From assembly GCA_951406725.2 (NCBI GenBank), contig OX597824.1, positions 23,374,001 through 23,438,000 of the forward strand: 64,000 nt of DNA. Direction: 5' to 3'. Positions 26,548-28,351 of the stretch are shown here, in pieces (position 1 is the stretch's first letter; each line of letters begins with the position of its first letter). Both the position numbers and the translations under genes were made by a program. The notes below the pieces were generated by a model. The model saw only the letters and a program-made list of their open reading frames with translations. It did not search any database and was not told where the DNA came from. The stretch is from Octopus vulgaris (lineage: Eukaryota).

Positions 26548-27209
26548 AAGTCCATTTTCGACCTACGACCTATGCGACTTACGACCGTCCGCACTTAAGA
26601 CAAAAACTAAAGGAATAAGAAAGGAGCACTCCGTCGGTTACGACGACGAGGGTCCCAGCTGATACGATCAACGGAACAGCCTGCTCATGAAATTAACGTG
26701 CAAGTGACTGAGCAATCCACAGACACGCGTACCCCTAACGTAGTTCTCAGGGAGATTCAGTGTGACACAGAGTGTGACAAGGCCGGCCCTTTGAAATACA
26801 GGTACAACTCATTTTTGCCAGCTGAGTGGACTGGAACAAGGTGAAAAAAAGTGTTTTGCTCAAGGACACAACACGTCGCCGGGAATCGAACTGACGACCT
26901 TACAATCGTGAGCCGAATGCCCTAACCACTAAGCTACGCGCCTTCACTGGGAATTTAAAAAAATAGATAAGTAACTGATTTTTGGACGTTGGGCAGTTGA
27001 GCGTCCCATAACAATGGCAGCAGTTGGCAGCGCAGGCCTGCCTCAGACCCAGGCACCCACTGCCTGCCACTGTCTTTCACTCAGTCGCATTCAAGAATCA
27101 GTTGCGTTTGAATGAAAACAGTGTTCAAAAATATAAATGCGGCACACAACCAGATCGACTTACAACCTGTCAGTCGGAAGGAAACTCGGTCGTAAGTCGA
27201 TGAGGTGTA
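26548..27209. mobile_element. Tigger/pogo-like MITE with nested SINE
   Basis: Subterminal inverted motifs TCGACCTACGACC/GACTTACGACC and GGTCGTAAGTCGA. Confidence 0.55.
26623..26947 (-). mobile_element. SINE family D (tRNA head + CORE-like + TATTTCAAAGGGCC module)
   Basis: Minus strand GTGAAGGCGCGTAGCTTAGTGGTTAGG...GTTCGATTCC...TGTGTCCTTGAGCAAAACAC... Confidence 0.8.
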
Positions 27210-27220
27210 TTTTCAATACA

Positions 27221-28193
27221 TATTTCTTTACTACCCACAAGGTGCTAAACACAGAGGGGGCAAACAAGGACAGACAAACGGATTAAGTCGATTACATCGA
27301 CCCCAGTGCGTAACTGGTACTTAATTAATCGACCCCGAAAGGATGAAAGGCAAAGACGACCTCGGCGGAATTTGAACTCAGAACGTAGCGGCAGACGAAA
27401 TACCTATTTCTTTACTACCCACAAGGGGCTAAACACAGAGGGGACAAACAAGGACAGACACACGGATTAAGTCGATTACATCGACCCCAGTGCGTAACTG
27501 GTACTTATTTAATCGACTCCGAAATGATGAAAGGCAAAGACGACCTCGGCGGAATTTGAACTCAGAAGGTAACGGCAGACGAAATACCTATTTCTTTATT
27601 ACCCACAAGGGGCTAAACATAGAGGGGACAAACAAGGACAGACACACGGATCAAGTCGATTACATCGACCCCAGTTCGTAACTGGTACTTATCTAATCGA
27701 CTCCGAAAAGATGACAGGCAAAGACGACCTCGGCGGAATTTGAACTCAGAAGGTAACGGCAGACGAAATACCTATTTCTTTATTACCCACAAGGGGCTAA
27801 ACATAGAGGGGACAAACAAGGACAGACACACGGATTAAGTCGATTACATCGACCCCAGTGCGTAACTGGTACTTATTTAATCGACCCCGAAAGGATGAAA
27901 GGCAAAGACGACCTCGGCGGAATTTGAACTCAGAAGGTAACGGCAGACGAAATACCTATTTCTTTATTACCCACAAGGGGCTAAACATAGAGGGGACAAA
28001 CAAGGACAGACAAACGGATTAAGTCGATTATATCAACCCCAGTGCGTAACTGGTACTTATTTAATCGACTCCGAAAGGATGAAAGGCAAAGTCGACCTCG
28101 GCGGAATTTGAACTCAGAAGGTAACGGCAGACGAAATACCGCAAAGCATTTCGCCCGCCCGGCGTGATAAGGTTTCTACCAGCTCGCCGCCTT
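27221..28193 (-). mobile_element. SINE B pentamer: five 184-bp head-less units plus one head, flanked by a 13-bp TSD
   Basis: Units start at 27221, 27405, 27589, 27773, 27957; TATTTTCAATACA at 27208-27220 and 28197-28209. Confidence 0.93.
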
Positions 28194-28351
28194 TTATATT
28201 TTCAATACAACAGAGTAAAAATATCAAGGCAATTTTATATACATCGATCGAATATATTATGTTCCGGTACTTATCGCTACATACAGATGGGTGTACTAAG
28301 CGGTTGGTGGTTATATATCGCAATCAAACACACATAGAGGCATCATATATA

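Follow-up and report, generated by a model that had tools for sequence, protein, structure and literature searches.

A SINE that forms a five-unit array in the window (the whole stretch of Octopus vulgaris DNA analyzed here, 64,000 nucleotides) was likely pasted by the enzyme of a tail-sharing LINE into older SINE copies at position 52, and the pentamer itself likely began as a two-copy chain that was then lengthened by local duplication. A first-pass annotation of this DNA had posed concatemer retroposition and in situ expansion as alternatives; in our reading both contribute, retroposition seeding an array and in situ duplication lengthening it. Positions within the SINE are numbered along a 235-nt computed family consensus, of which each array unit spans positions 52–235.

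Architecture of the pentamer and its recurrence in the genome

The layout originally described, with one head, five 184-bp units and one 13-bp TSD, is confirmed by the coordinates in the assembly sequence: on the minus strand, a single head is followed by five units of exactly 184 bp each (Table 1). All five units contain a LINE-like 3′ tail and a B-box-like motif (the A- and B-box-like motifs were spotted by eye). Each of the four internal junctions reads AAAGAAATA joined directly to GGTATTTCGTC, and the inverted motif noted earlier at this joint is real, forming a 5-bp hairpin in the predicted fold. The hairpin nevertheless seems dispensable, because a second junction type, in which the tail is joined to position 19 (4,111 matches genome-wide), lacks the inverted motif. 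The pentamer units differ from one another at 4–14 of 184 sites, with variants distributed as a mosaic among units, and contain no internal run of four T, one private change excepted. The five-unit count is that of the assembly. All five units can be told apart by differences that nest, the two TSD copies are identical, thousands of like junctions occur in the genome and no gap lies nearby (the sole N run of the window, 61239–61338, is distant), such that we attach almost no probability to an assembly artefact.

Table 1. Coordinates of SINE features in the window (strand given where assigned; base letters with numbers denote alleles at consensus positions).
Feature	Position	Strand	Remarks
TSD copy 3′ of last tail	27208..27220		In element sense starts TGTATT, one mismatch to the GGTATT landing motif
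Pentamer unit 5 (last)	27221..27404	-	Founder type with common alleles C68, T132, G161, G204, G225; private T100
Pentamer unit 4, mosaic	27405..27588	-	Private C72 (also unit 1), T100 (also unit 5), G179
Pentamer unit 3, mosaic	27589..27772	-	Highest number of extra private changes
Pentamer unit 2	27773..27956	-	Mosaic of unit-1 and unit-5 types
Pentamer unit 1	27957..28140	-	Other founder type: T68, A132, A161, A204, A225; private C72
Single head (A-box-like part)	28141..28191	-	Several changes and a 4-bp duplication
TSD copy upstream of head	28197..28209		Identical to 27208–27220
Separate trimer	24901..25450	-	Two near-identical units, 190-bp period; older truncated last unit
Monomer	14277..14514	+	3′ flank starts GGTATTT, the cognate landing site
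Dimer with second junction type (tail to head position 19)	48795..49175	-	Last unit of older family

The claim that the neighboring trimer shares the pentamer junction holds for the joint itself, but the trimer junction carries an extra GAAATA (six bases, hence the period of 190) and the third unit is a different, more diverged and truncated copy (it differs from unit 2 at 19 sites over 123 bp, while the first two units differ from each other at 4). The same junction had also been assigned to the end of the copy near 14503–14514; this we withdraw, since only GGTATTT follows the tail there (14508–14514) before unrelated DNA begins, marking a landing site and not a unit junction. The copy at 14195–14272 of the window begins at position 158, and at a separate locus (L408:1469–2011) four 78-bp units lie in tandem behind a SINE, with the tail joined to position 158, which suggests that this joint is a third recurrent junction. 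At 48795–49405 (minus strand), as at many other loci, full SINEs often begin 10–20 bp past an older-family tail; the spacer between the two is TSD-like, as in repeated insertion at one site.

The junction is reproducible, as the first-pass annotation proposed: an exact 22-mer spanning the tail and position 52 occurs 34,787 times genome-wide (reversed control, 0), and an exact head–body 25-mer 21,013 times. A census of contiguous blocks (1,064,000 bp, two of the blocks picked for known dense junctions) yielded 222 loci, 110 of them with the young (A) tail; of these, 52 are monomers and the other 58 are arrays (dimers, 36; trimers, 12; four-unit, 2; five-unit, 7; six-unit, 1), proportions that are no genome estimates because the blocks are junction-rich (49 exact junctions in 1.06 Mb, against ~12 per Mb for the genome). 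Random placement of the junctions would have spoken against a common mechanism; among the 99 array junctions of the blocks, 94 fall close to position 52 and the remaining 5 at position 19. Beyond this census, the statistics also draw on 3-kb loci that targeted searches had picked out, most of them on C1. The architecture of the pentamer is general to the genome and not specific to its locus.

Insertion of full-length copies into genomic SINE copies at position 52

A full copy inserting at position 52 by ordinary TPRT would be expected to leave two heads and an internal TSD. A search pattern for such two-head loci gave 90 matches, compared with 5 at a control position, and we read the first 30 of these 90 (29 distinct loci). 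In 24 loci the target resumes at position 52 behind the inner copy, in 2 it does not, and 3 could not be scored; the internal duplication is TSD-like in length (14–23 bp, about 16 bp). At four loci (L314, L322, L326, L338), deletions or changes belonging to the target are repeated on both sides of the insert, and in four two-head loci the duplicated copies disagree. At the level of the family, full-length SINE copies insert at position 52 of genomic SINE copies. Self-targeted insertion, one of several mechanisms initially listed, is in this way backed by the two-head loci, and further by a similar-tailed LINE at the same site and by the old-family last units described below.

In a common variant of the head, G replaces T47 and C replaces G52, so that GGTAT is lost while stem pairing is retained in the predicted fold. 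Heads devoid of GGTAT make up 24/62 in the blocks and 3/93 among two-head matches (P = 6e-16); the 3 two-head matches with the variant head come from two loci, neither of them a site-52 insertion. Two other arrangements were seen: two-head loci in which a 65–70-bp head unit has expanded into tandem heads (G000:C14:84691114–84691411, C11:22893223–22893400 and L319), and antisense copies lying inside another SINE at GGTAC/GGTTA-like sites (G000:C20:10115070–10116219, the C11 L064-area locus and L049).

The similar-tailed LINE is a decayed, L1/Tx1-like family (the Tx1 label being presumptive). Among the copies inspected (the best 14 of 40 scored, plus one), the 3′ end lies at SINE position 52 in 14/15, or 13/14 when the seed copy is left out, the fixed target typical of a Tx1-type LINE; one copy runs into N after six bases. 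The LINE tail is 80–91% like that of the SINE over 32–44 bp, and the SINE tail is also about 76–87% similar to other LINE-like tails. It is this tail, shared with a LINE at position 52, that leads us to regard the LINE enzyme as the likely agent pasting the SINE into older copies there. Copies of the LINE are 87–89% alike, a divergence near the 9.5% that separates SINE units, and would be about as old as the SINE burst. Their ORF2 is broken, its pieces mostly 42–59% identical to an intact endonuclease–RT–zinc-finger ORF; the intact relative has the two ORFs usual for Tx1-type LINEs, ORF1 and an ORF2 with PF03372, PF00078 and PF13966 (endonuclease, RT, zinc finger), and the best named match of a LINE ORF2 is from Argonauta (69%).

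A first LINE-tail pattern at site 52 gave 0 matches and a looser one 486, of which 8 were inspected (7 SINE variants, 1 LINE). A target head at the 5′ end of the site-52 LINE was not found in 3/4 upstream stretches, the fourth being a LINE at an array junction. In L408, a site-52 LINE copy sits at a tail–position 52 array junction with its own short duplication, indicating that junctions serve as targets too. Other LINE-like tails are joined to position 19 in 7 matches, one with remains of ORF2. A non-SINE element with the same tail type and no ORF2 detectable near its end was seen at L384, L385 and G000:C1:3676706, two of its copies at SINE position 19.

An intact two-ORF LINE (L366:419–6615, G000:C2:18830001–18837500) has a 1149-aa frame, is (ATCT)n-flanked and looks recently active, with many 98%-identical copies. 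We considered this (ATCT)n-associated LINE as the site-52 element and rejected it: the tail is shared, but 0 joints to SINE sites were found. In the window, 47226–47345 and 47614–47660 (plus strand) hold a 3′ remnant of an L1/Tx1-like LINE, 62% identical to the intact ORF2; this remnant has a SINE-like tail followed by (ATCT)n.

Landing preferences extend beyond the SINE itself. Outside SINEs, GGTAT-like DNA follows 33/61 T-tail copies (background 2.4%) and (TA)n follows 12; upstream TSD copies start GGTAT-like in 14/28, and AGAAA-like DNA follows 16/49 C-tail copies. Block junctions divide by tail, with T-tails at site 52 in 89/89 and C-tails equally at sites 52 and 19 (5 and 5). The LINE mostly has the C-type tail, whereas site-52 SINEs mostly have the T-type tail, a difference that counts against the proposed route. 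Landing by the SINE is less strict than by the LINE, and several partners or pairing by read-through RNA may contribute. Site choice by RNA pairing alone was a former reading that we have given up; the endonuclease alone may select the site, or read-through RNA pairing may also take part.

Proposed seeding, merging and lengthening of arrays

If arrays are seeded by independent insertions, their units need not be related. A-tailed units of the same dimer differ by 9.4% (31 arrays) and those of separate loci by 9.5%, so that the comparison of units within and between arrays, which the first-pass annotation had suggested, argues against copying from one template. Of the 58 block arrays, 26 end in a unit whose tail belongs to a related but older family (B) and 24 in an A-tailed unit; for 8 the last tail is unresolved. 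Compared with the first unit, the terminal B unit shows more divergence in 53/67 arrays and less in 9 (7.5% vs 4.1%, P = 3e-8); first and last units of A–A arrays do not differ significantly in this respect (P = 0.2). In divergence, last units match the free monomers of the family to which they belong (6.0% vs 5.4%, non-CpG). A direct joining of a B tail to position 52 was seen in none of the B-tail neighbors listed. Unrelated units and mixed families within dimers exclude a single circle as the general source and suggest instead that independent copies seeded the arrays and that duplication followed.

A circular 184-nt RNA copied by rolling-circle reverse transcription, one of the mechanisms first listed, would account for the exact period, the invariant junction and the near-identical units of some long arrays. 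It founders on the dimers, whose units are unrelated copies and often of two families where one template per array is expected of a retrozyme-like concatemer. Such a circle also has no head, Rfam gives no match to the array (E ≤ 10), and the CTGAnGA core is absent from the doubled unit, leaving no sign of a self-cleaving ribozyme of known type in each unit; we regard this origin as extremely improbable. Duplication purely at the DNA level, in which a monomer expands through a GGTATT match of its 3′ flank with position 52 and no second insertion takes place, has in its favor that many monomers have a GGTAT-like flank and that shared private variants show duplication to happen. Near-identical units are its prediction, contrary to what dimers display; it cannot give a last unit of an older family, and units 1 and 5 of the pentamer differ at five family-polymorphic sites. 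We consider it largely refuted for dimers and, overall, very improbable.

We return to independent insertion, which begins with the integration seen genome-wide: a full-length copy enters position 52 of a genomic copy and duplicates about 16 bp. Two-head loci are rare relative to junctions (90 vs 34,787, by patterns of differing stringency), and it weighs against the model that for almost all arrays a seamless merge of the heads has to be inferred. In this second step, the head of the new cDNA would usually pair with the old head just upstream to yield one mosaic head, the old body and tail becoming the last unit and the TSD of the old copy becoming the outer TSD. A later deletion between the two heads would yield an identical one-head product. 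As expected under merging of two heads, A–B1 array heads are intermediate in divergence between young and old monomers, and the old allele T23 occurs in 27/46 of them, compared with 7/50 young and 67/78 old monomers; A–B2 array heads, to the contrary, are young-looking in their 5′ half (3.5% vs 6.1%). Head age and last-unit age are not significantly correlated (rho 0.15, P = 0.14). In one-head A–B dimers, 0/30 private last-unit alleles from positions 53–69 recur in the first unit, so the internal TSD is not kept, contrary to what annealing in its simplest form would lead one to expect.

Age estimates for the outer TSD favor the old copy without being decisive. Outer TSDs were detected in 34/73 A–B arrays, 45/93 young copies and 16/70 old monomers, with a divergence in A–B arrays of 5.7% against 4.0% in young copies (P = 0.18). 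Simulated TSD ages, which depend on our own assumptions, gave P = 0.007 for a young age and 0.5 for an old one. A reading of the A–B arrays as having fresh TSDs was weakened by this simulation, in which the TSD statistic saturates. Contigs of related organisms, compared with two A–B dimers (L172, L256), comprised several hundred thousand repeat contigs and no readable locus-specific joint. At L172:742–1190, organisms B, C and D have contigs that bridge the upstream repeat region with about 100 other letters, and this repeat may be a recent insertion or rearrangement in the present genome. At L256:1497, the T-type tail allele reaches ~5% of summed depth in the more distant organism E and 87% in D (depth being distinct from copy number), hinting that the site-52 SINE subfamily is lineage-limited.

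Two further routes to a one-head array deserve weighing here. Read-through transcripts of dimers or longer arrays might be retroposed whole, the junction being inherited and later exchange lengthening the product, a route compatible with our main model. It would fit the scarcity of internal four-T runs in the pentamer (one private change excepted), the detection of A–B array TSDs as often as those of young copies, and the long perfect TSDs that flank some arrays whose last unit is 8–9% diverged; whole-dimer insertion is also compatible with the pentamer locus. Against this, no pair of loci is close in both first and last unit (one identical pair excepted, probably a segmental duplicate), last units are diverged to the extent of free monomers, and the route leaves unexplained those two-head loci whose internal TSD carries private mutations; as a general origin we think it unlikely. 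Alternatively, an RT copying one SINE RNA could, on reaching position 52, use the GGTATT match to jump to a second RNA at its 3′ end, giving in one insertion a single head, units unrelated to each other and one TSD. Old last units mostly begin with young-type bases (T54 in 43/46, although the search pattern fixed neighboring bases in many), as such a jump would produce. This requires old, diverged RNAs as the first template and, for mosaic heads, a second jump back; no internal TSD can result, and at the DNA level this base is already a landing site of the LINE. We judge it quite improbable as the general explanation. Of the earlier proposals, template jumping and a multimeric master copy could still each have given rise to a share of the arrays.

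Independent insertion followed by merging leaves the lengthening of chains to a third step, in which unequal exchange or slippage between adjacent 184-bp units would extend some of them. The pattern is evident from within-array unit pairs, 67/243 of which are <3% apart (about 0.1 expected), and from five-unit arrays, whose mean unit distance is 5.2% (8 arrays). This excess, together with shared private variants, matches the in situ growth that characterizes the SINE-satellite class. In the pentamer, units 1 and 5 differ at 11 sites, and since 5 of these are polymorphic in the family, two source elements are suggested. The variant C72 is found in units 1–4 and T100 in units 2–5 (both frequencies round to 0.000 among 444 other units), and G179 is common to units 2–4. 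A word joining C72 and T100 has 7 matches genome-wide, 3 of them in the pentamer; two further matches were inspected and are unrelated B-tail units. Private variants shared between neighboring units speak for later in situ duplication from two founders, bearing out the mosaicism and post-insertion exchange noted at the outset; most likely, to judge from these variants, units 2–4 arose in situ through exchange between the two. The founding dimer may have formed on site or arrived whole, either being compatible with the sequence.

B2 bodies give 1,041 pattern matches behind an A tail and 388 behind a head, and B1 bodies 170 and 287, respectively (the stringency of the patterns being slightly different). 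One may picture a three-way conflict, in which the LINE homes on the SINE, the tail-sharing SINE homes on itself as seamlessly as R2 on rDNA and has converted most older-subfamily copies to arrays (the 1,041 vs 388 matches, patterns of slightly different stringency), and the compensatory G47/C52 head keeps the stem and escapes both; we raise this tentatively and would, on balance, slightly disfavor it.

Relation to known elements and arrays

The element is short (about 235 bp), interspersed and present in high copy, with TSDs of variable length (in 25/50 monomers, median 16 bp; control 1%), and it shares its 3′ tail with a partner LINE, all of which mark it as a SINE. ARAGORN detected 0 tRNA genes in the pentamer or its head. 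We presume that the octopus OK, OR1 and OR2 SINEs (Ohshima and Okada 1994) are the same or related families.

A route from dispersed to tandem repeats becomes traceable here, with targeted retroposition fixing the repeat unit and DNA exchange lengthening it, and the genome offers tens of thousands of natural events for the study of 5′ junction formation. Repeat dating would also be misled by the arrays, in which elements of unequal age share a locus. No host function is implied. What was already known is the array architecture (from a clam) and pairs of SINE and LINE sharing a target in another transposon; we did not find the self-targeting route in the literature searched. A search of openly accessible main texts returned no self-homing SINE, and main-text passages of a 2026 octopus repeat annotation do not mention a self-targeting one (PMC13282606).

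The proposed merging of heads has its closest counterpart in R2, for which, as passages of the respective papers describe, upstream homology gives a seamless 5′ junction by cDNA annealing with the shared sequence not duplicated (PMC11331408), and target-matching RNA 3′ ends raise efficiency (PMC6530143). R2 is an autonomous rDNA-specific element studied in experimental systems, which the octopus SINE matches by analogy only (passages in PMC11331408, PMC6530143). The crocodilian SINEU-3/Tx1-Mar pair likewise unites a SINE and a Tx1 LINE with a fixed target inside another repeat, and shows sequential tandem insertions; its target is a Mariner and a TSD separates its tandem copies, whereas the octopus SINE serves as its own target and its copies are joined seamlessly (passages in PMC4494074).

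Our findings bear on the question of SINE multimers, whose origin in B2, Dip and Ves is given as open between sequential insertion and dimeric templates (passages in PMC8466645). Up to half of copies reside in multimers there, much as in octopus, but those are described as whole SINEs in head-to-tail order and the octopus units are headless save the first (same passages). Squamate SINE-derived satellites also consist of tandem SINE parts with one longer terminal unit and have homogenized longer arrays; they are attributed to DNA duplication and reach up to 1000 units, in contrast to the mostly 2–6 units and unrelated seeds of octopus (passages in PMC10702118).

With its tandem SINE parts, one extended terminal unit and one TSD, the pentamer belongs with the SINE-satellite, or TSD1-(SINE)n-TSD1, class. 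Such arrays in the clam Scapharca broughtonii make up about 3% of copies, with unequal recombination suggested as their origin (passages in PMC11481361). They share with the octopus arrays a full first unit (tRNA-headed in the clam), remaining units head-truncated at one position and a single TSD, and reach up to 15 units. Inner units of the clam are also tail-truncated, whereas octopus tails are complete; and in place of the ~3% of the clam, octopus arrays constitute about half of the sampled loci, with insertion into genomic copies seen directly (passages in PMC11481361).
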